Shown here piece by piece: positions 3,201 through 48,824 of a DNA stretch of 64,000 nt. Both the position numbers and the translations under genes were made by a program. Where the stretch lies: the NCBI RefSeq assembly GCF_022846255.1, contig NZ_AP025682.1; one strand, given 5' to 3'. Within the stretch, counting starts at the first letter, position 1; the number at the start of each line of letters is the position of its first letter. A model generated the notes under the pieces. That model saw nothing but the letters and a program-made list of their open reading frames with translations. It made no database searches and was not told the origin of the DNA. This DNA is from Escherichia coli (GTDB lineage: Bacteria > Pseudomonadota > Gammaproteobacteria > Enterobacterales > Enterobacteriaceae).

Positions 3201-4493
3201 TCACAGATACGGCGACCAGGCAGGGAATTTGACCTGTCCATCAGTTGCCGGAAGACGCGCTTTGAAACGCCCATCTGTAGAAACCAAATTCAGCACGGAT
3301 CCCATCCCCTGAGAAGAGCTGTAGATTACCATAGTGCCGTTAGGTGCCAGACTTGGCGTTTCATCCAGGAACGTGGACGACAGAACTTGTACGCCTCCCG
3401 TTGCCAGATCTTGTTTGGCAATGTGCTGCTGCCCACCGTTGGAGCTGACCATTACCATAAATTTACCGTCGCTGCTGACATCCGCATCCTGGTTCTGCGA
3501 ACCTTCCCAGGTAATACGTTGTGGCGCACCGCCGTTGATATTCACTTTATAAACCTGCGGACGACCGGCCTGGTCAGAAGTAAATGCCAGGTTCTGGCTG
3601 TCCGGGAACCAAGTCGGTTCGGTATTGTTACTGCGACCATCAGTTACCTGGCGGATCTGACCAGAAGCCAAATCCATTACGTACAGGTTCAGGCTACCGG
3701 TTTTCGACAAGGCGAATGCCAGTTTGCTGCCGTCTGGCGAGAATGCAGGTGCACCGTTGTGACGCGGGAATGAAGCCACCTGACGTACAGCGCCATTTGC
3801 CAGCGTCTGAATAACCAGCGCGGAACGACCGCTTTCGAAGGTCACATAAGCCAGTTTAGAACCGTCTGGTGACCACGCCGGAGACATCAGCGGTTGCGGT
3901 GAACGGTGAACGACAAACTGGTTGTAACCGTCATAGTCAGATACGCGCAGTTCATACGGGAACTGACCGCCGTTAGTCTGAACAACGTAGGCAATACGGG
4001 TACGGAACGCACCTTTAATACCGGTCAGTTTTTCAAATACTTCGTCACTGGCGGTATGACCTGCATAACGCAGCCACTGCTTGTTCACTTTGTACGAGTT
4101 CTGAGCAAGTACAGTACCCGGTGCGCCGCCAGTGTCAACAAGTTGATAAGCGACATTGTAAGAACCATCCGGATTCGGAGTGACCTGACCGACAACCACA
4201 GCGTCAATGCCCAGCGCGGACCATGCAGCTGGTTGTACTTCCTGCGCACTACCCGGCTGCTGTGGCAGACGAGCACGATCTAACGGATTAAATTTACCGC
4301 TGTTACGCAAGTCAGCAGCAACGATGCCGCCAATATCTTCAGGTGCCGCACCAGGCCCCGCCCACTGGAAAGGAACAACACCAATAGGACGACCGGAATC
4401 TACACCGCTGTCGATCACAATGCGGACTTCAGCATGCAGAACTGATGCCCACAGTATGAGAAAACCAAATGCTACTCGTAATGCCTGCTTCAT
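3201..4493 (-). CDS. tolB: Tol-Pal system periplasmic beta-propeller protein TolB
   Basis: Translation [30 protein letters not shown]...; start taken at second Met of the track ORF. Confidence 0.95.
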
Positions 4494-4625
4494 CATATCT
4501 CCCTTATCTGGACCGATGGCCCACGATAATTTAGCAGAATGTTAACAAACTAAAATACACAAAACTACCAGAACCCCGTGGCAACCGGTGCCTGATGTTG
4601 ACCGTCGGAACAGTCAACATCGCGA

Positions 4626-5955: not shown

Positions 5956-6384
5956 TTAGATAGGCTGCGTCATTAAACCAACCGATTTCACACCCGCACT
6001 ATGTAACAAGTTCAGTGCTTTAATTATTTCATCGTAAGGCACATCTTTTGCGCCACCGATCAGAAAGACCGTTTTCGGGTTGGCCTTGAAACGGCTGGAC
6101 ACTTCCGCCACCACCTGCTCTGGTGGTAAACGCTCCAGACGATCTTTCTCAACCACCACGGTGTACTGACCAATACCAGACACTTCAACAATCACTGGCG
6201 GATTATCGTTACTGCTCACCGCCTGTGATTCAGTAGCGTCTGGCAGATCGACCTCCACGCTCTGGGTGATGATGGGCGCTGTCGCCATAAAGATCAGCAA
6301 CAGCACCAGCAGTACGTCCAGCAACGGTACAATGTTGATTTCGGACTTGAGATCGCGACGACCTCGTCCACGCGCTCTGGCCAT
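5956..6384 (-). CDS. tolR: Tol-Pal system protein TolR
   Basis: 142-aa ORF, ExbD/TolR-like, in operon position. Confidence 0.95.
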   Translation of the reverse strand: MARARGRGRRDLKSEINIVPLLDVLLVLLLIFMATAPIITQSVEVDLPDATESQAVSSNDNPPVIVEVSGIGQYTVVVEKDRLERLPPEQVVAEVSSRFKANPKTVFLIGGAKDVPYDEIIKALNLLHSAGVKSVGLMTQPI

Positions 6385-10775: not shown

Positions 10776-11450
10776 CATGACTCCTTGCTCATCGCATGAA
10801 GACTCCGAGAGTGAACCCCGTTAGAAAGGGTCACACGCATGCCCCAATACAAAATTATTTGCTCGCCTCTATCGTTGCCATTTCATCAAAAGAGGAAAAG
10901 ACAATGATAAAAAAGTTACAAATGTGTTAATGAATAAACCAAATTGATCCCGTAATTATATTACGCCGCAAAATCCTTACAATAAACAGGTTTTTATTGA
11001 GCAAATTTGCATTTTTCGACAGTGATCAATTTATAGCGAAATTGTCACGATCTCACCAATTTGATCTACAACAATTTATCGTGTTTTGCAGATTTTTTTC
11101 AAGAATTAAAAATTGATTTATATCAAAATCAACCACATATGTTAATTATGTGTGAATCATGAGCCACTGGTAACTTTATTGTTAATTTATTGTAACAAAA
11201 CAGCACGGTAAATTACCCACATGGAAATATATAGATAAAAAACCAGTATTTTATTTAACAAAGCCGCTTTATCGACTTTTTATAATACTAATTAGTTAGA
11301 GTAGCTACTTTATTGCCATTTTACATAACATATTTTTATCAACGTTAATTGATTGTTGTCTTTATGAGCAACGTACTGTAAATCCGTCACTTATTGTTTC
11401 ATTGGTAATAATCACAAGAAGAAATAGATACCTTAGGTATAGTCAGATGG
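10776..11450. promoter_or_regulatory. AT-rich region upstream of cydA; probably includes the cydAB promoter/regulatory region, extent uncertain
   Basis: Non-coding AT-rich DNA immediately 5' of cydA; cydAB is known to have a long complex upstream control region. Confidence 0.4.
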
Positions 11451-12103
11451 AACAAGGATTTTTAAAATAAAATATATATGGTATTAATATTTCCCGATCT
11501 GTATTCAATGATTCGCTCAAAGATTGAAAATCAAGAGAAATTGTTATAGCAGTGATACGAAACAACAAAACGGAATGATTGCCAGCCGTTAGAAAACACC
11601 GGACACTCTCGTGTAAAAAGCTACCCTGTCTATGGATATAGCGATATCCACTCATCAAGCGTGGACTGAATGATATTCAGCTCCATATGGGCGGAAACCT
11701 GGAGGATAAATACGATTTCGCCGTTGGAATCAAGGTTGTTCTGCAATATCTACCAGACTGCTTCAATTTATCTGTTTTGGCAGTGCAATAATCTTAATTT
11801 AACTATTTGAAGATGATGATATTGTCAGATGCCAGAAATTTAGTAATCTGGAGAACCGTGTCTATGATCACTAAATATTAAAGTAATAGTCGATAATTCA
11901 GTAGCACATCGGGTAATATAACGTATTGATACATAATCATATTAAAAAATTCGTGATTAAATAACATAAGAATATGTTTTATTATCATTAAAAAACCTTC
12001 TATTTCCATCATCCTTAAGATAATAAAACAGCGAATGATGGATAACTTGACCAGAAAAACAAGCAAGCATATAAAATTAAAAAATATGATTCCACTTTCA
12101 TTT

Positions 12104-13219
12104 TTATAAAATGGCATCGTGAAGAGCGAGTTGATAATGCTGCAATGCATCAGCGTCCTGTCCAGCAGTTTCATAAATTTTGGCAATGTTATAATAGGAG
12201 TTAGCGCGCGTTGTCGCCGCATTTACCCCACTCGCTAACGAGATCGCTTTACGATTTGCCCAAATTGCTTCCGCTATGTTGCCATTTTTCTGATACGCCA
12301 GACCCAGGTTACTAAATGCCTGTCCGTAATTGCCGTCTAATTCTGTTGCCTGTTGGAAGAGTTGAATGGCTTGCTCAAGTTGACCGGTTTTATAAACAGC
12401 TTCACCTTCGCGATTATATTTTCTTGCCAGTTGAGTATCTCCACTGTTTTGCATCGCAGGCGAAGCCGGAGCTGAAGAGTCCGTCGCAGGCATTATCACA
12501 GTGGCTAAATCCCTGACGTCTAATGTGGTGTCGTTAAAATTGGCGCTGGTAACAGAGTTGATATCTTCAAACTCGCCGTTTGGATTGAGTTTAAACACGG
12601 TCCAGATGTTCCCTCGTTTTCCAGCAGGGACACTATAACTACGTACCAGGGAGCTCCCTACATAAACAAACACTCTTGCCTTACTGGCAGAGAGATAATT
12701 ACTGTTGGGCAACCCTTTATTGCTATAGTCCTGCACGGCATAGATGTAACTTTCACCAAAATGCTTTTTGCTGATAGTGACAGTTTCTGGTCCATAGCTA
12801 TCCGTATCATCAACATCCAGATTGGCATCAGTTCCCTCTTTACTATCAAAATAGATATGTCCGCCAGGGAAGATCAAATGCGAATCAAGATCAAAAGGCT
12901 TTTCGCCCCAGCTCAAAACTACACGCATGCCATCCAGATTCGTCATCACCGGACTGATAGCATAAGTCATGCCAGCGCACGGACATTTGACCACCAGATT
13001 GGAATACCCCTCTTTTTTGACGATTAATAGAGCATCTTTATTATCAGCAAATGAAGTCCCCAAACTAATGCTGCCCGAAGTATTTGTGGTTCCAGAAACA
13101 GATTGTGCGCCATTGCGTTGCAGCGTCATCGATGCTCCTTCAATGCGTTTATCTTTCACTGTCGCACTTAAAATATCGATATTTACATCGGCCGCATAAA
13201 CGTCCGAATTTATACCCAT
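12104..13219 (-). CDS. Hypothetical protein, probably exported: N-terminal beta-rich region (PEGA/carboxypeptidase-regulatory-like, then a region with DLDSHL and LDVDDTDSYGPE motifs), low-complexity linker, C-terminal TPR repeats. Possible N-terminal extension to 13267 with no canonical start
   Basis: 371-aa ORF in track; TPR-like helical repeats near C-terminus (AFSNLGLAYQKNGNIAEAI..., YYNIAKIYETAGQDADAL); in-frame upstream codons encode a signal-peptide-like KKKIVLPVALALMGINSDVYA-ADV. Confidence 0.7.
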   Translation of the reverse strand: MGINSDVYAADVNIDILSATVKDKRIEGASMTLQRNGAQSVSGTTNTSGSISLGTSFADNKDALLIVKKEGYSNLVVKCPCAGMTYAISPVMTNLDGMRVVLSWGEKPFDLDSHLIFPGGHIYFDSKEGTDANLDVDDTDSYGPETVTISKKHFGESYIYAVQDYSNKGLPNSNYLSASKARVFVYVGSSLVRSYSVPAGKRGNIWTVFKLNPNGEFEDINSVTSANFNDTTLDVRDLATVIMPATDSSAPASPAMQNSGDTQLARKYNREGEAVYKTGQLEQAIQLFQQATELDGNYGQAFSNLGLAYQKNGNIAEAIWANRKAISLASGVNAATTRANSYYNIAKIYETAGQDADALQHYQLALHDAIL

Positions 13220-13357
13220 CAGGGCCAGAGCAACCGGCAGAACAATTTTCTTCTTGTATAAATGCTTTTACAGAACGGAGAGGGGATATTTTGCCGGGCA
13301 TTATTGCGCAGAAGATGGGAAAAAAGCAGTGGGCAAACTTTTCAGATTAGTGCCCGA

Positions 13358-13458
13358 ATAAAAAAGGCCATCATAAGATGGCCAACCATGTCGAAACCGA
13401 CAGCCCTTCGCCCCTCCTGTAGAGGGAAGCGGCGAGGGCTATTTCTTATTACAGATAT
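13358..13458 (-). ncRNA. sdhX: sucD 3'-UTR, expected position of the 3'-UTR-derived sRNA SdhX (RybD), ending at the sucD terminator
   Basis: Region directly 3' of sucD stop on minus strand, ending in hairpin ggccatc-ataa-gatggcc plus U-run (13358-13383); SdhX is known to derive from the sucD 3'-UTR. The sRNA sequence itself was not checked from memory. Confidence 0.55.
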
Positions 13459-19794: not shown

Positions 19795-20075
19795 CTGCAT
19801 TTCTTTTGTAGGCCGGATAAGGCATTCACGCCGCATCCGGCGCTGTTTGCCTGATGCGACGCTTGCGCGTCTTATCAGGCCTACGGTTTCTGCATTTCTT
19901 TTGTAGGCCGGATAAGGCGTTCACGCCGCATCCGGCACTGGTTGCCTGATGCGACGCTTGTGCGTCTTATCAGGCCTACGGTTTCTGCATTTCTTTTGTA
20001 GGCCGGATAAGGCGTTCACGCCGCATCCGGCACTGGTTGCCTGATGCGACGCTTGCGCGTCTTATCAGGCCTACG
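19795..20075. repeat. Three tandem REP/BIME-type palindromic units between sucA and sdhB
   Basis: Near-identical ~98-bp units containing gccggataaggcgttcacgccgcatccggc and gatgcgacgcttgcgcgtcttatcaggcctac. Confidence 0.85.
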
Positions 20076-39666: not shown

Positions 39667-42343
39667 CGAACCCTTACGTCCCGACCCCGATCGTCTGCTG
39701 GAACAAACTGCCACGCCGCATCGGGGGAAGCTGAAAGTTTTCTTCGGTGCCTGCGCAGGCGTCGGGAAGACCTGGGCGATGCTGGCAGAGGCCCAGCGAC
39801 TGCGGGCGCAAGGGCTGGATATTGTGGTTGGCGTGGTTGAAACCCATGGGCGGAAAGATACCGCCGCAATGCTGGAAGGGCTGGCTGTTCTGCCGCCCAA
39901 ACGCCAGGCGTACCGTGGGCGGCACATCAGCGAGTTTGATCTCGATGCCGCCCTCGCCCGCCGTCCGGCACTGATCTTAATGGACGAACTGGCGCACAGT
40001 AATGCGCCAGGTTCACGTCATCCTAAACGCTGGCAGGACATTGAAGAGCTGCTGGAAGCTGGCATTGATGTTTTCACAACCGTCAACGTTCAGCATCTGG
40101 AAAGTCTGAATGATGTGGTCAGCGGCGTCACCGGAATTCAGGTACGGGAAACCGTGCCCGATCCTTTTTTCGATGCCGCCGACGACGTGGTGCTGGTGGA
40201 CTTGCCCCCGGACGATCTGCGCCAGCGGCTGAAAGAAGGCAAAGTCTATATTGCCGGGCAGGCGGAGCGCGCCATTGAACATTTTTTCCGCAAAGGCAAT
40301 CTGATCGCCCTGCGCGAACTGGCACTGCGCCGTACTGCCGATCGCGTTGATGAGCAAATGCGCGCCTGGCGGGGGCATCCTGGCGAAGAGAAAGTCTGGC
40401 ACACACGCGACGCGATCCTTTTATGCATCGGGCATAACACCGGCAGTGAGAAACTGGTCCGCGCGGCGGCGCGGTTGGCCTCGCGCCTGGGTAGTGTCTG
40501 GCACGCGGTGTATGTTGAAACCCCTGCCCTGCATCGCTTACCGGAGAAAAAACGTCGGGCAATTCTCAGCGCCTTACGTCTGGCGCAGGAGCTGGGCGCG
40601 GAGACGGCAACACTTTCTGATCCAGCGGAAGAGAAAGCGGTAGTGCGTTATGCCCGTGAACATAATCTCGGCAAGATTATTCTCGGTCGCCCGGCCTCGC
40701 GCCGCTGGTGGCGTCGGGAAACGTTTGCTGACCGACTGGCGCGAATCGCCCCCGATCTCGATCAGGTGCTGGTCGCGCTTGATGAACCACCCGCCCGCAC
40801 GATTAACAACGCGCCGGATAGCCGCTCTTTTAAAGACAAGTGGCGGGTACAGATTCAGGGATGCGTGGTTGCCGCCGCGTTATGCGCCGTTATCACCTTA
40901 ATTGCCATGCAGTGGCTGATGGCGTTTGATGCCGCCAACCTGGTGATGCTGTATCTGCTTGGCGTGGTTGTGGTGGCGCTATTTTATGGACGCTGGCCTT
41001 CGGTGGTTGCTACCGTCATTAATGTGGTGAGTTTCGATCTCTTTTTTATCGCCCCACGCGGCACGCTCGCCGTCTCTGATGTGCAATATCTGCTGACCTT
41101 CGCGGTGATGTTAACCGTCGGGCTGGTGATCGGGAACCTTACTGCTGGCGTGCGTTATCAGGCGCGGGTAGCCCGTTACCGCGAGCAACGCACACGGCAC
41201 TTATATGAAATGTCGAAAGCTCTGGCTGTGGGCCGCAGTCCGCAGGACATCGCCGCCACTAGCGAACAATTTATTGCTTCCACATTTCATGCCCGCAGTC
41301 AGGTGCTGTTACCCGATGACAACGGTAAATTGCAGCCGTTAACACATCCGCAAGGAATGACGCCGTGGGACGATGCCATCGCGCAGTGGAGTTTTGATAA
41401 AGGCCTGCCTGCGGGCGCGGGCACCGACACGTTACCCGGTGTACCGTACCAGATTTTGCCGCTAAAAAGCGGCGAGAAAACCTACGGGCTGGTGGTGGTG
41501 GAACCGGGGAATCTGCGCCAGTTGATGATCCCGGAACAGCAACGCCTGCTGGAGACGTTTACGCTGTTAGTCGCCAATGCCCTTGAGCGGCTGACACTGA
41601 CCGCCAGCGAAGAACAGGCGCGGATGGCAAGCGAACGAGAACAGATCCGCAACGCCCTGCTGGCGGCACTTTCGCATGATTTACGCACGCCGCTTACGGT
41701 GCTGTTCGGTCAGGCAGAAATCTTAACGCTCGATCTGGCAAGCGAAGGATCGCCCCACGCCCGCCAGGCCAGCGAGATTCGCCAGCATGTGCTGAACACG
41801 ACCCGACTGGTGAATAATCTACTGGATATGGCGCGAATTCAGTCCGGCGGCTTTAATTTGAAGAAAGAGTGGTTAACGCTGGAAGAAGTGGTCGGCAGCG
41901 CGCTGCAAATGCTGGAACCGGGTTTATCGTCGCCCATCAATCTTTCTCTGCCAGAACCGCTGACCTTAATCCACGTTGACGGGCCACTGTTTGAACGGGT
42001 GCTGATTAATCTGCTGGAGAACGCGGTGAAATACGCGGGTGCGCAGGCCGAAATTGGTATCGATGCCCACGTTGAGGGCGAAAATCTACAACTGGATGTC
42101 TGGGATAATGGCCCCGGTCTTCCACCAGGCCAGGAGCAGACGATATTTGATAAGTTTGCTCGCGGGAATAAAGAGTCGGCGGTGCCGGGGGTAGGGCTTG
42201 GGTTGGCAATTTGTCGGGCGATTGTGGATGTACACGGCGGCACCATTACCGCGTTCAACCGACCGGAAGGTGGTGCCTGTTTTCGTGTTACACTTCCCCA
42301 GCAAACTGCCCCTGAACTTGAAGAATTTCATGAGGATATGTGA
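39659..42343 (+). CDS. kdpD: Sensor histidine kinase KdpD
   Basis: Start at [16 protein letters not shown] overlapping kdpC end; 894 aa. Confidence 0.95.
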
Positions 42344-43017
42344 CAAACGTTCTGATTGTTGAAGATGAACAGGCTATTCGTCGCTTTCTGCGCACGGCGC
42401 TGGAGGGCGACGGGATGCGCGTCTTTGAGGCCGAAACGCTGCAACGCGGCTTGCTGGAAGCGGCAACCCGTAAGCCAGATTTGATTATTCTCGATCTCGG
42501 CCTGCCCGATGGTGATGGGATTGAGTTTATCCGCGACCTGCGCCAGTGGAGCGCGGTGCCGGTGATTGTGCTTTCCGCACGCAGCGAAGAGAGCGACAAA
42601 ATCGCCGCGCTGGATGCCGGAGCGGATGATTACCTGAGTAAGCCGTTTGGCATTGGCGAATTGCAGGCCCGTCTGCGCGTCGCTTTACGCCGCCACTCCG
42701 CCACCACCGCGCCCGATCCGCTGGTGAAATTTTCCGATGTGACCGTCGATTTAGCCGCCCGCGTGATCCATCGCGGTGAGGAAGAGGTGCATCTCACCCC
42801 GATTGAGTTTCGCCTGCTGGCGGTGCTGCTCAACAATGCCGGAAAAGTGCTCACCCAGCGCCAGCTCCTTAACCAGGTGTGGGGGCCAAACGCGGTCGAA
42901 CACAGCCATTATTTGCGTATTTATATGGGACATCTGCGACAAAAACTGGAACAGGATCCCGCTCGCCCCCGCCATTTCATTACTGAAACCGGTATTGGGT
43001 ATCGGTTTATGCTTTGA
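42340..43017 (+). CDS. kdpE: Response regulator KdpE (OmpR family)
   Basis: 225-aa ORF, receiver plus winged-helix. Confidence 0.95.
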   Translation: MTNVLIVEDEQAIRRFLRTALEGDGMRVFEAETLQRGLLEAATRKPDLIILDLGLPDGDGIEFIRDLRQWSAVPVIVLSARSEESDKIAALDAGADDYLSKPFGIGELQARLRVALRRHSATTAPDPLVKFSDVTVDLAARVIHRGEEEVHLTPIEFRLLAVLLNNAGKVLTQRQLLNQVWGPNAVEHSHYLRIYMGHLRQKLEQDPARPRHFITETGIGYRFML

Positions 43018-43052
43018 ATATTAATTTTAATACATCCTGCCTTTTATTAATT

Positions 43053-43612: not shown

Positions 43613-45811
43613 ATGTCAAAATTAAAAATTGCGGTTAGTGATTCTTGCCCGGACTGTTTTACCACGCAGCGAGAATGTATCTATATTAATGAAAACAGTA
43701 ATATCGATGTGGCGGCAATAGTTTTATCGCTCAACGATGTTACACGCGGAAAACTCGATGAAATCGATGCCACGGGTTATGGCATCCCGGTATTTATTGC
43801 TACTGAAAATCAAGAACGTGTACCCGCAGAGTATTTGCCCCGTATTTCGGGTGTCTTTGAGAATTGCGAATCGCGACGAGAATTTTATGGTCGTCAGTTA
43901 GAAACCGCAGCCAGCCATTATGAAACTCAACTGCGCCCGCCCTTCTTCCGCGCACTGGTCGATTATGTCAATCAGGGTAACAGCGCGTTTGATTGCCCCG
44001 GTCATCAGGGCGGCGAATTTTTCCGTCGCCATCCGGCGGGGAATCAGTTTGTGGAATACTTTGGTGAGGCGCTGTTCCGTGCTGACTTGTGCAACGCGGA
44101 TGTGGCAATGGGCGATCTGCTGATTCACGAAGGCGCGCCATGCATTGCACAGCAACATGCGGCAAAAGTGTTTAATGCCGATAAAACATACTTCGTTCTA
44201 AATGGCACTTCATCTTCTAACAAAGTGGTTTTAAACGCCCTGTTAACACCGGGGGATCTGGTGCTGTTTGACCGTAATAACCATAAATCTAATCACCACG
44301 GAGCGTTGCTACAGGCTGGCGCAACACCAGTTTATCTGGAAACCGCACGCAACCCGTATGGCTTTATCGGTGGTATTGATGCCCACTGCTTCGAAGAAAA
44401 TTACCTGCGCGAACTGATTACAGAAGTCGCACCGCAGCGGGCAAAAGAGGCGCGTCCTTTCCGCCTCGCCGTTATTCAGCTAGGCACTTACGACGGTACG
44501 ATTTATAACGCCCGTCAGGTGGTGGATAAAATTGGTCATCTGTGTGACTACATCCTCTTTGACTCCGCATGGGTCGGCTATGAGCAGTTTATCCCGATGA
44601 TGGCGGACTGTTCACCACTGTTGCTGGATCTTAATGAGAACGATCCGGGTATTCTGGTTACGCAATCTGTGCATAAACAGCAGGCTGGTTTTTCCCAGAC
44701 TTCACAAATCCATAAAAAAGACAGCCATATCAAAGGGCAACAGCGTTATGTACCGCACAAACGCATGAACAACGCCTTTATGATGCATGCCTCCACCAGC
44801 CCGTTCTATCCGCTGTTTGCCGCACTGGATATCAACGCCAAAATGCATGAAGGTGTCAGCGGTCGTAATATGTGGATGGATTGTGTGGTAAATGGCATTA
44901 ATGCCCGCAAACTGATCCTCGATAACTGTCAGCATATTCGTCCATTCGTACCTGAACTGGTGGATGGTAAACCCTGGCAGTCGTATGAAACAGCGCAAAT
45001 TGCGGTTGATCTGCGCTTCTTCCAGTTTGTACCAGGTGAGCACTGGCATTCTTTTGAAGGCTATGCAGAGAATCAATACTTTGTCGATCCGTGCAAACTG
45101 TTGCTGACAACCCCAGGTATTGATGCACGTAACGGCGAATATGAAGCGTTCGGTGTACCCGCGACGATTCTTGCTAACTTCCTGCGCGAAAATGGCGTAG
45201 TGCCGGAAAAATGCGATCTTAACTCCATCCTCTTTCTGCTGACTCCGGCAGAAGATATGGCCAAACTTCAGCAACTTGCTGCTCTGCTGGTACGCTTCGA
45301 AAAACTGCTTGAGTCCGACGCGCCATTATCAGAAGTACTGCCTTCCATCTACAAACAGCATGAAGAGCGCTACACCGGTTATACCCTGCGTCAGTTGTGT
45401 CAGGAAATGCATGATTTGTATGCCCGTCACAACGTGAAACAACTGCAAAAAGAGATGTTTCGTAAGGAACACTTCCCACGTGTCAGCATGAATCCACAAG
45501 AAGCCAACTACGCCTATTTACGCGGTGAAGTGGAGCTGGTTCGTCTGCCGGATGCAGAAGGCCGTATCGCTGCAGAAGGTGCGCTTCCTTATCCTCCGGG
45601 TGTGCTGTGTGTTGTTCCGGGTGAAATCTGGGGTGGTGCTGTTCTGCGTTACTTCAGCGCTCTGGAAGAAGGGATCAACCTGCTGCCAGGTTTTGCACCG
45701 GAGCTTCAGGGTGTCTATATCGAAGAACATGATGGTCGTAAGCAAGTTTGGTGCTATGTCATCAAGCCTCGTGATGCGCAAAGCATCCTGTTGAAAGGGG
45801 AAAAATTATGA
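43613..45811 (+). CDS. speF: Inducible ornithine decarboxylase
   Basis: Start at MSKLKIAVSDSCPDCF; 732 aa. Confidence 0.95.
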   Translation: MSKLKIAVSDSCPDCFTTQRECIYINENSNIDVAAIVLSLNDVTRGKLDEIDATGYGIPVFIATENQERVPAEYLPRISGVFENCESRREFYGRQLETAASHYETQLRPPFFRALVDYVNQGNSAFDCPGHQGGEFFRRHPAGNQFVEYFGEALFRADLCNADVAMGDLLIHEGAPCIAQQHAAKVFNADKTYFVLNGTSSSNKVVLNALLTPGDLVLFDRNNHKSNHHGALLQAGATPVYLETARNPYGFIGGIDAHCFEENYLRELITEVAPQRAKEARPFRLAVIQLGTYDGTIYNARQVVDKIGHLCDYILFDSAWVGYEQFIPMMADCSPLLLDLNENDPGILVTQSVHKQQAGFSQTSQIHKKDSHIKGQQRYVPHKRMNNAFMMHASTSPFYPLFAALDINAKMHEGVSGRNMWMDCVVNGINARKLILDNCQHIRPFVPELVDGKPWQSYETAQIAVDLRFFQFVPGEHWHSFEGYAENQYFVDPCKLLLTTPGIDARNGEYEAFGVPATILANFLRENGVVPEKCDLNSILFLLTPAEDMAKLQQLAALLVRFEKLLESDAPLSEVLPSIYKQHEERYTGYTLRQLCQEMHDLYARHNVKQLQKEMFRKEHFPRVSMNPQEANYAYLRGEVELVRLPDAEGRIAAEGALPYPPGVLCVVPGEIWGGAVLRYFSALEEGINLLPGFAPELQGVYIEEHDGRKQVWCYVIKPRDAQSILLKGEKL

Positions 45812-47127
45812 GTCAGGCTAAATCGAACAAAATGGGCGTCGTTCAGTTAACCATACTGACGATGGTCAACATGATGGGCTCCGGTATCATCATGCTGCCG
45901 ACAAAGCTTGCCGAAGTTGGGACAATCTCAATAATCTCCTGGTTGGTGACTGCCGTAGGCTCAATGGCGCTGGCATGGGCATTCGCAAAATGCGGCATGT
46001 TCAGCCGTAAATCAGGCGGTATGGGCGGTTATGCGGAGTATGCTTTCGGTAAATCAGGGAACTTTATGGCGAACTACACCTACGGTGTCTCGCTGCTGAT
46101 TGCTAACGTCGCAATTGCTATTTCGGCGGTTGGTTACGGCACCGAACTGCTCGGCGCGAGTTTGTCGCCAGTGCAGATTGGTCTTGCGACCATCGGGGTG
46201 CTGTGGATTTGTACCGTGGCTAACTTCGGTGGTGCGCGCATTACCGGGCAAATCAGTAGCATTACTGTGTGGGGGGTCATTATTCCGGTCGTCGGTCTGT
46301 GCATTATCGGCTGGTTCTGGTTTAGCCCGACGCTATACGCTAACTCATGGAACCCGCACCATGTGCCGTTCTTTAGCGCTGTAGGTTCTTCCATCGCTAT
46401 GACGTTGTGGGCTTTCCTTGGTCTGGAGTCAGCCTGTGCCAACGCCGAAGTAGTGGAAAACCCGGAACGTAACGTGCCAATAGCAGTCCTTGGCGGTACG
46501 TTAGGTGCGGCGGTGATTTATATCGTCTCCACCAACGTGATTGCCGGGATTGTGCCAAATATGGAGCTGGCAAATTCAACGGCACCATTTGGCCTGGCCT
46601 TCGCACAGATGTTCACACCAGAAGTGGGTAAAGTCATTATGGCGCTGATGGTGATGTCCTGCTGCGGTTCACTGCTTGGCTGGCAGTTCACCATTGCCCA
46701 GGTGTTTAAATCTTCATCTGATGAAGGCTACTTCCCTAAAATTTTCTCCCGTGTAACCAAAGTGGATGCACCGGTTCAGGGAATGTTGACCATTGTGATT
46801 ATTCAGAGTGGATTGGCACTGATGACCATTAGCCCGTCACTGAACAGCCAGTTCAACGTGCTGGTTAACCTGGCCGTGGTGACCAATATCATCCCGTATA
46901 TTCTGTCGATGGCAGCATTAGTTATTATTCAGCAGGTCGCCAATGTGCCACCGTCAAAAGCGAAAGTAGCAAACTTTGTTGCCTTTGTTGGTGCGATGTA
47001 CAGTTTCTATGCGCTGTACTCATCCGGGGAAGAAGCCATGCTGTACGGTTCCATCGTGACCTTCCTTGGTTGGACACTGTATGGTCTGGTATCTCCACGC
47101 TTTGAACTGAAAAATAAACACGGTTAA
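45808..47127 (+). CDS. potE: Putrescine:ornithine antiporter
   Basis: 439-aa APC-family ORF. Confidence 0.95.
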   Translation: MSQAKSNKMGVVQLTILTMVNMMGSGIIMLPTKLAEVGTISIISWLVTAVGSMALAWAFAKCGMFSRKSGGMGGYAEYAFGKSGNFMANYTYGVSLLIANVAIAISAVGYGTELLGASLSPVQIGLATIGVLWICTVANFGGARITGQISSITVWGVIIPVVGLCIIGWFWFSPTLYANSWNPHHVPFFSAVGSSIAMTLWAFLGLESACANAEVVENPERNVPIAVLGGTLGAAVIYIVSTNVIAGIVPNMELANSTAPFGLAFAQMFTPEVGKVIMALMVMSCCGSLLGWQFTIAQVFKSSSDEGYFPKIFSRVTKVDAPVQGMLTIVIIQSGLALMTISPSLNSQFNVLVNLAVVTNIIPYILSMAALVIIQQVANVPPSKAKVANFVAFVGAMYSFYALYSSGEEAMLYGSIVTFLGWTLYGLVSPRFELKNKHG

Positions 47128-47137
47128 TAAAGCAAAG

Positions 47138-47171
47138 TAAAAAAGGGCGATCTTCTGACCGCCCTTTTTCT
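47138..47171. terminator. Bidirectional Rho-independent terminator between convergent potE and pgm
   Basis: aaaaagggcg...cgcccttttt. Confidence 0.6.
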
Positions 47172-47183
47172 TATTAAATGTGT

Positions 47184-48824
47184 TTACGCGTTTTTCAGAA
47201 CTTCGCTAACAATCTCAACCGCTTCTTTCTCAATCTGCTTGCGATGTTCTTCCCCGAGGAAGCTTTCGCAGTAGATTTTGTATGCGTCTTCTGTGCCTGA
47301 CGGACGCGCGGCGAACCAGCCGTTGTCAGTCATCACTTTCAGACCGCCAATAGAAGCACCGTTGCCCGGAGCAGCAGTCAGGCGCGCGGTGATCGGGTCA
47401 CCTGCCAGGGTGCTGGCGCTCACCATTTCCGGAGACAGCTTAGACAGCGCCGCTTTTTGTGCGGAAGTCGCAGCTGCCTGCAAACGGTTGTAGCTCGGCG
47501 CACCAAAGCGTTTTGCCAGTTCGTTGTAGTGTTCCTGCGGGTTCTTACCGGTGACAGCGGTGATTTCCGCCGCCAGCAGACACATAATGATGCCGTCTTT
47601 GTCGGTGGACCACGGCGTGCCGTCGAAACGCAGGAAGGAAGCCCCTGCGCTCTCTTCGCCGCCAAAGCCGAAGCTGCCGTCGAACAAGCCATCAACAAAC
47701 CATTTGAAGCCTACCGGCACTTCCACCAGCCTGCGGCCCAAATCATTGACCACACGGTCGATCATCGCAGAAGAAACCAGCGTTTTACCAACGGCAACAT
47801 CTTTGCCCCACTGCGGACGATGCTGGAACAGGTAATTGATCGCCACCGCCAGGTAGTGGTTCGGATTCATCAAACCTGCCGGAGTGACGATACCGTGACG
47901 GTCATAATCCGGGTCGTTAGCAAACGCCAGATCGAACTTATCACGCAGTGCCAGCAGACCCGCCATCGCACACTCGGAGGAGCAGTCCATACGGATCGCG
48001 CCGTCTTTATCGAGGTGCATAAAGCGGAAGGTTTGATCGACCTGATCGTTAACGATGGTCAGGTTAAGGTTGTAATACTCGCCAATACGCTTCCAGTATT
48101 CGATACCGGAACCGCCCAGCGGATCAACGCCCAGCGTCAGGCCCGCTTTCTGAATCGCCGCCATATCAACGATATCGGCCAGACCTTCCACAAACGGCTG
48201 CACCAGATCCTGCTCTTTCACATGACCGGATGCCATCGCTTCGTCGAGGGAGATACGCTTCACGCCTTTCAGGCCATCGGCCAGCAGTGCGTTGGCACGA
48301 TCTTCCACCACTTTAGTGACGTTGGTATCAGCCGGGCCACCATTTGGCGGATTGTACTTGATACCACCATCTTCCGGCGGGTTATGGGACGGTGTAATCA
48401 CGATACCGTCTGCCAGTGGGCCACCTTTTTTATTGTGAACCAGGATGGCATTGGAAACGGCAGGCGTCGGAGTGAAGCCATTGTTTTCCTGCACAATAAC
48501 ATCAACGCCGTTCGCTGCCAGCACTTCCAGAACGGAAATGAACGCAGGTTCGGACAGGGCGTGAGTATCTTTACCCACATAGCAAGGGCCAGTGATGCCG
48601 TTTTTCGCACGTTCTTCAGCAATTGCCTGAGCGATCGCCAGAATATGCGGCTCGTTAAAGCTGTGGCGCGCTGCACTGCCACGGTGACCGGAAGTACCGA
48701 ATTTCACCGCGTGCTCCGCATTCCCTGCTTCTGGTTTCAGTACATAATATTGCGCCGTCAGTTGGGCGACGTTAATCAAATCACTCTGTTGTGCAGGTTG
48801 GCCTGCACGGTTGTGGATAGCCAT
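47184..48824 (-). CDS. pgm: Phosphoglucomutase
   Basis: Start at [16 protein letters not shown]; 546 aa. Confidence 0.95.

Follow-up and report, generated by a model that had tools for sequence, protein, structure and literature searches.

The convergent potE-pgm junction of an Escherichia coli genome: a shared hairpin resembling a two-way terminator at a common compact allele

The potE-pgm junction and its hairpin

The window, that is, the whole stretch of 64,000 nucleotides of Escherichia coli DNA analysed here, carries two genes that run towards each other. The plus-strand gene potE (45808..47127; an ORF of 439 aa with its stop at 47125-47127) encodes the putrescine-ornithine antiporter and stands at the end of speFL-speF-potE, whereas the minus-strand gene pgm (47184-48824; an ORF of 546 aa with its stop at 47184-47186; annotation transferred from E7-1N7) encodes phosphoglucomutase. 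The encoded PotE is 98.6% identical to that of K-12 and matches the one annotated in E7-1N7 at 100%, and Pgm is 99.8% identical to its K-12 counterpart. The two stop codons enclose an intergenic spacer of 56 bp (47128..47183), which reads TAAAGCAAAGTAAAAAAGGGCGATCTTCTGACCGCCCTTTTTCTTATTAAATGTGT. The ORF list has no entry within these 56 bp, and a REP palindrome of the GCCGGATGCGGCG type is absent from 47128-47183. The initial annotation had described convergent genes about 55 bp apart that share one hairpin, and this picture holds: the spacer, with an exact length of 56 bp, contains a single palindrome, which can fold on either strand and is followed both ways by a U-rich tail. The spacer at the annotated junction of E7-1N7 is identical to that of the window; the two sequences are 99.9% identical at the junction and 98.2% identical over 44 kb, and the first 13 kb are not collinear. 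At the nucleotide level, the potE allele of the window (45900-46900) is rare and divergent, with matches of at least 99% identity in 51 genomes, of 95-99% in 238 and of 90-95% in 4756. The last 450 nt of potE diverge by up to 8% among E. coli strains.

The palindrome is a bidirectional, intrinsic-terminator-like hairpin (47139..47170) and is the only hairpin between the two converging stops. It consists of a run of six A (47139-47144), the stem arm GGGCGATC (47145-47152), the loop TTCT (47153-47156), the stem arm GACCGCCC (47157-47164) and a run of five T (47165-47169), which is followed on its 3' side by further T-rich sequence. The stem comprises eight pairs, five of them G-C, and is closed by a loop of 4 nt, as expected of the GC-rich stem-loop of an intrinsic terminator; likewise, the tails contain the expected U-tract, with seven U out of eight positions on the plus strand (TTTTTCTT) and six out of eight on the minus strand (TTTTTTAC). 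With an A-run on one side of the GC-rich stem-loop and a T-run on the other, both strands encode a hairpin with a U-tract behind it. The two strands are not equivalent, since at the sixth pair of the stem the plus strand has an A.C mismatch and the minus strand a G.U wobble. The energy of the core stem is −13.6 kcal/mol on the minus strand (pgm sense) versus −10.1 kcal/mol on the plus strand (potE sense). A 71-nt stretch around the hairpin folds with −21.5 kcal/mol on the pgm-sense strand (z = −4.0; none of 200 shuffles was as good) and with −18.0 kcal/mol on the potE-sense strand (z = −2.3; 6 of 200 shuffles were as good). A consensus terminator scan matched the minus strand only (14 pairs, 6 GC), and the same scan of the plus strand did not call the hairpin. 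At gathering thresholds, Rfam gave no matches in the window between 43 and 50 kb.

Compact and island-bearing alleles in E. coli

In K-12, the stops of potE and pgm are 1747 bp apart, compared with 56 bp in the window. This interval is annotated with ybfH, a partial winged-helix (wHTH) fragment; ybfG, a DUF2625 pseudogene interrupted by a stop, both halves of which match DUF2625 in Pfam; and ybfP, a lipoprotein gene for whose product Pfam returned no matches. Thus, the initial annotation named the three K-12 genes correctly, and the comparison it proposed across potE-pgm yielded no direct junction in K-12. The window aligns to K-12 on both sides, and what is missing is the 1.69 kb between two copies of the hairpin. 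Indeed, the blastn blocks overlap in a 31-nt unit (47137..47167) that is single in the window and doubled in K-12, where a repeat search placed the direct repeats at positions 4309-4339 and 6001-6031 of the K-12 locus (L001), 81% identical and spaced by 1692 nt. One K-12 copy, hp1, follows potE and has the loop region GATTGAATGATC; the other, hp2, follows pgm and has GATCTTGCGACC; the 1.69-kb island lies between them. The unit in the window is of the pgm-proximal hp2 type. The window therefore shares with K-12 potE-ybfH-ybfG-ybfP-pgm (b0689-b0691) the flanking genes and the type of the pgm-proximal hairpin, with the loop TTCT versus TTGC in K-12 hp2, but lacks the kdpE 3' fragment, the DUF2625 gene, ybfP and the REP/BIME repeats that the K-12 island segment also carries. 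A second, REP-containing direct repeat of ~44 nt brackets the island genes.

The fragment annotated as ybfH derives from kdpE, which lies upstream in the window on the plus strand (42340..43017). It is a 145-nt copy, 90.3% identical, of the last 48 codons of kdpE plus the stop (blastn, kdpE 535-679 against K-12 intergenic positions 81-225), its source being the last 144 nt of the gene and one further base. The copy occupies positions 4381-4525 of the K-12 locus, its counterpart in the window is 42874-43018, and it is interrupted by an in-frame stop; the window junction does not contain it. Hence, ybfH is a decayed kdpE 3' end and not the remnant of an independent gene. A reading of island positions 82-226 as a multi-copy repeat, based on matches 'near kdpE', was rejected, as this segment is the copy of the kdpE 3' end.

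A census of 5426 complete E. coli genomes found the compact junction in one piece in 3196 of them (59%), including O157:H7, and the K-12-type island in 1851; potE is absent from 381 (about 7%), and these three numbers add up to about the whole set. Only 2 of the 3196 one-piece junctions belong to a 222-bp form that has a BIME and two hairpins; this form corresponds to the island allele collapsed at the ~44-nt repeat. Further alleles have the orders kdpE-BIME-hp2-pgm and kdpE-...-ybfP-hp2-pgm, or are islands with an IS200C insertion or with an intact DUF2625 gene. REP/BIME copies were found in two-hairpin, island and potE-less alleles. In the three potE-less loci that were inspected (L085, 5886-6050; L095, 2391-3362; L096, 2644-3455), speFL-speF-potE is absent; in L085, kdpE is followed by BIME-hp2-pgm, L095 retains a BIME, a kdpE 3' fragment and ybfP, and ybfP is annotated in L096 as well. 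Judging from their sequences, these loci are consistent with a deletion between kdpE and its downstream copy. Variation at this position is not new, as ybfP is listed as a variable gene in an E. coli pan-genome table (PMC11390585). The compact form pointed out by the initial annotation is thus correct but ordinary, a strain-variable spot of a well-known kind.

The initial annotation had also grouped the potE-pgm junction with two others, ybfA/ybgA and gltA/abrB, as signs of a backbone lacking several K-12 segments. Alignment of the whole window against 93 kb of K-12 bears out both absences. At ybfA/ybgA, the 9.6-kb K-12 rhsC element is missing (window 34670/34681); this element comprises rhsC, ybfB, an RHS fragment, ybfC and ISAs1 remnants, and the gap between ybgA and ybfA in the window is ~100 bp. 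At gltA/abrB, 4.8 kb are missing (window 25394/25428), namely, ybgD-ybgQ-ybgP and the 5' part of ybgO from the ybgDQPO fimbrial operon, so that between gltA and abrB the fimbrial gene ybgO is reduced to ~390 nt from its 3' end (window 25394-25830). Because of this remnant, the site is a deletion scar and not a never-occupied position. Consequently, the absences stand, but they should not be read as segments that the lineage never had: the ybgO remnant and the haplotypes at the potE-pgm hairpin (see below) point to secondary loss. A fourth difference consists in the replacement of K-12 mngR-mngA-mngB (5.9 kb) by 2.2 kb (window 11151-13360) that include a minus-strand gene for a TPR-repeat protein of 371 aa (12104-13219). 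The TPR-gene form occupies this site in 1104 genomes, including LF82 and NRG 857C, and E7-1N7 has a methylaspartate-mutase cluster there instead. Between sucA and sdhB, the window is ~155 nt longer than K-12 and contains three tandem matches of ~71 nt to the REP-derived Rfam family naRNA4, spaced by 95 nt (19811-20071). Beside each indel junction, a stretch of 0.5-2 kb (25001-26500, 32501-34500 and 46001-46500) is 89-93% identical to K-12, versus 96-99% elsewhere. Over window positions 30000-54000, none of the complete E. coli genomes compared exceeds 98.4% identity, and the best matches, FDAARGOS_1285, CE10 and IAI39, all bear the island. Given this ceiling, the lineage is not closely represented among complete genomes and the region is a mosaic.

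The junction and its hairpin in other species

For comparison with other species, we used 80 loci from one PotE scan of species-representative genomes, none of which comes from E. fergusonii, E. marmotae or E. ruysiae. The order kdpE-speF-potE-pgm is present in 54 of the 80 loci, and among the 55 loci with pgm after potE, 38 have a spacer of at most 165 bp that contains no gene. Compact spacers measure 57 bp in E. albertii, 40-48 bp in Cedecea, 54-56 bp in Atlantibacter and 70-71 bp in Citrobacter. The compact form being both the majority allele of E. coli and the usual architecture of the family, it is K-12 that represents the special case. Ten loci, from Salmonella and some Kluyvera, Citrobacter, Yokenella, Trabulsiella and Intestinirhabdus, carry in the potE-pgm spacer a gene of ~160 aa (158-173 aa) assigned by Pfam to Pyridox_ox_2 (L014, 8321-8999; L015, L016, L018, L031, L041, L043, L049, L050 and L052). 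Its product is unrelated to ybfG or ybfP and therefore gives no clue to where the K-12 island came from; the presence of an unrelated gene in the spacer of other genera does, however, mark the spacer as an insertion hot spot across the family.

The A-run, GC-rich hairpin and T-run adjoining the pgm stop are kept in almost all of these loci, with differing stem sequences. In an alignment of 30-nt segments, each centred on its hairpin, pairing is maintained in 26 elements from at least 14 genera, with 86% of cells paired versus 69% in shuffles, where two Cedecea rows shifted by 2 columns were counted as gaps or mismatches. Changes on both sides of the stem occur in 8 of 13 pairs, and double-change cells number 70 versus 23 in shuffles. 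The covariation score of 0.49, compared with at most 0.14 in slid controls and reached by none of 500 shuffles, is inflated because each sequence was centred on its own palindrome. The firm point of the comparison is the conserved position and architecture of the hairpin. The E. albertii junction (L008) is similar to that of the window in having a short spacer and a single hairpin with an A-run and a T-run, but it has an hp1-type loop and inner stem (GATCGAATGATC), with a stem that is perfect on both strands (−14.2 kcal/mol), whereas the window has the hp2 type (GATCTTCTGACC). One further locus, L010 (CP089930, 'E. coli E69'), combines E. coli-like KdpE (99.1%) and Pgm (99.8%) with SpeF and PotE of 92.6% and 95.4% identity, respectively, as distant from the window as those of E. 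albertii, and has a two-hairpin allele with the exact E. albertii hp1 loop. In this genome, speF-potE may have been introgressed.

Termination at the hairpin and origin of the compact allele

Taken together, these data make it very probable that potE and pgm share a terminator acting in both directions, and that the kdpE-speFL-speF-potE/pgm-seqA junction of the window has its ordinary, widespread compact form, set apart from K-12 by the absence of the island; this assessment concerns the element and the allele, and the direction of the indel is a separate matter. We infer from the sequence that termination could occur in either direction. In the proposed mechanism, potE and pgm would be transcribed towards each other and end at one common Rho-independent terminator, where a pause of RNA polymerase at the U-tract, whichever gene it came from, would be accompanied by hairpin formation and release of the transcript. 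Termination would be expected to be somewhat better for pgm, whose transcript has the G.U pair (−13.6 kcal/mol), than for potE with the A.C mismatch (−10.1 kcal/mol). The element resembles the bidirectional Rho-independent terminators of E. coli in its single GC-rich hairpin, its A-run and T-run flanks and its location within ~60 bp of converging stops, and differs from them in the asymmetry of its stem and in being known here as a sequence. It is conceivable, but in our judgement improbable, that the hairpin is not an intrinsic terminator and is only a pause or collision site, at which head-on collisions of RNA polymerases end transcription. The genes are indeed convergent, the A.C mismatch weakens the potE-sense stem, and one preprint (bioRxiv 10.1101/2022.10.23.513370) describes the collision model in convergent E. 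coli gene pairs numbering in the hundreds. However, that source describes the RNAs encoded by collision-dependent bidirectional terminators (the SEnd-seq class; Ju et al. 2019) as unlike intrinsic terminators, whereas the potE-pgm element displays the full canonical set on both strands, i.e. a GC-rich stem of eight pairs, a tetraloop and a U-rich tail. Due to this resemblance, we do not assign it to the collision-driven class. Moreover, each of the hairpins in K-12 follows a gene whose neighbour runs in the same direction (pgm then ybfP; potE then ybfG), with no convergent partner adjacent.

As to how a one-hairpin junction came about in this lineage, the compact allele is probably the product of recombination, or of slippage, between hp1 and hp2, and the island would thereby have been removed without a scar; such deletions would have happened repeatedly, the crossover falling in the left arm, where 16 nt are identical. 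The evidence on the direction of the indel comes from six direct, three island and two two-hairpin alleles, and flank haplotypes could also have been mixed by homologous exchange between lineages. The hairpin of the window and the adjoining 450 nt of pgm are 100% identical to hp2 and pgm of the island-bearing AJ5, the potE-side flank of the window is identical to that of the island-bearing E06, and the hairpin in the direct allele of STEC435 is exactly K-12 hp2. Copies of the island differ by 2-5% between lineages, roughly as their flanks do, which implies that the island is old in the species. With compact and island alleles sharing flank haplotypes and an old island, repeated deletion between hp1 and hp2 is the simplest explanation. 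A credible, if less probable, alternative is that the compact form is the uninterrupted ancestral state and that the island entered another E. coli lineage in a single insertion and was then spread by homologous recombination. The outgroups on their own would suggest such retention, since the compact, one-hairpin junctions of E. albertii and most Enterobacteriaceae are equally predicted by it; the compact allele is the majority form in E. coli, and the hp2-type hairpin adjoins pgm in every E. coli allele examined, so that it could be the species' own version of the terminator. This account is harder to reconcile with the island alleles residing on very different potE-side haplotypes (92-96% identical), each of which is matched by a compact allele up to the hairpin, as seen in the window (E06 on the left, AJ5 on the right) and in STEC435; spread by recombination would require repeated crossovers within a few bases of hp1. 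Furthermore, hp1 of the island alleles has the E. albertii loop, but all six sampled compact E. coli alleles have the hp2-type loop, and a synthetic junction query retrieved no compact E. coli allele with the hp1/E. albertii loop (the best match, at 95.7% identity, corresponds to five loop differences). Finally, the short junction could in principle be an assembly collapse of near-identical hairpin repeats in a genome that really has the island, as 31-nt repeats bound the island and might mislead assemblers. This is extremely improbable: repeats of 31 nt are much too short for an assembler to lose the 1.7 kb of unique sequence between them, and the same junction is present in 3196 complete genomes from many laboratories and platforms, among them O157:H7.

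Extending the deletion reading to the neighbouring repeats, we lean slightly towards the view that the whole kdpE-pgm interval is a locus of repeat-driven switching, in which the shared terminator of the window would be a deletion product and not the primitive state. The interval has three nested pairs of direct repeats: the hairpins of 31 nt, the ~44-nt repeat with its REP, and the 145 nt that 'ybfH' has in common with the 3' end of kdpE. If the ybfG-ybfP island were lost repeatedly and without a scar, the allele of the window would result; loss of the island genes alone would give the two-hairpin allele, and loss of the whole speFL-speF-potE operon would give the potE-less allele found in 7% of genomes. 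The island allele thus resembles known systems of short-direct-repeat deletion and hot spots of REP/BIME rearrangement in its nested direct repeats and in the occurrence of alleles that match collapse at each pair; it differs from them in that the deletions and the direction of change at potE-pgm are deduced from the alleles.

These results have a few modest consequences for how this part of the E. coli chromosome is viewed. K-12 is not the reference state at potE-pgm; in E. coli and its relatives, the two genes normally meet at a compact junction with one shared terminator. The origin of 'ybfH' from kdpE bears on the annotation of K-12, and ~7% of complete E. coli genomes lack speF-potE, the inducible operon for ornithine decarboxylase and the antiporter. 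If the switching interpretation is right, the interval would be a small recombination hot spot, the repeats of which explain the alleles seen, and it may offer a simple natural system for measuring the rates of short-repeat deletion.
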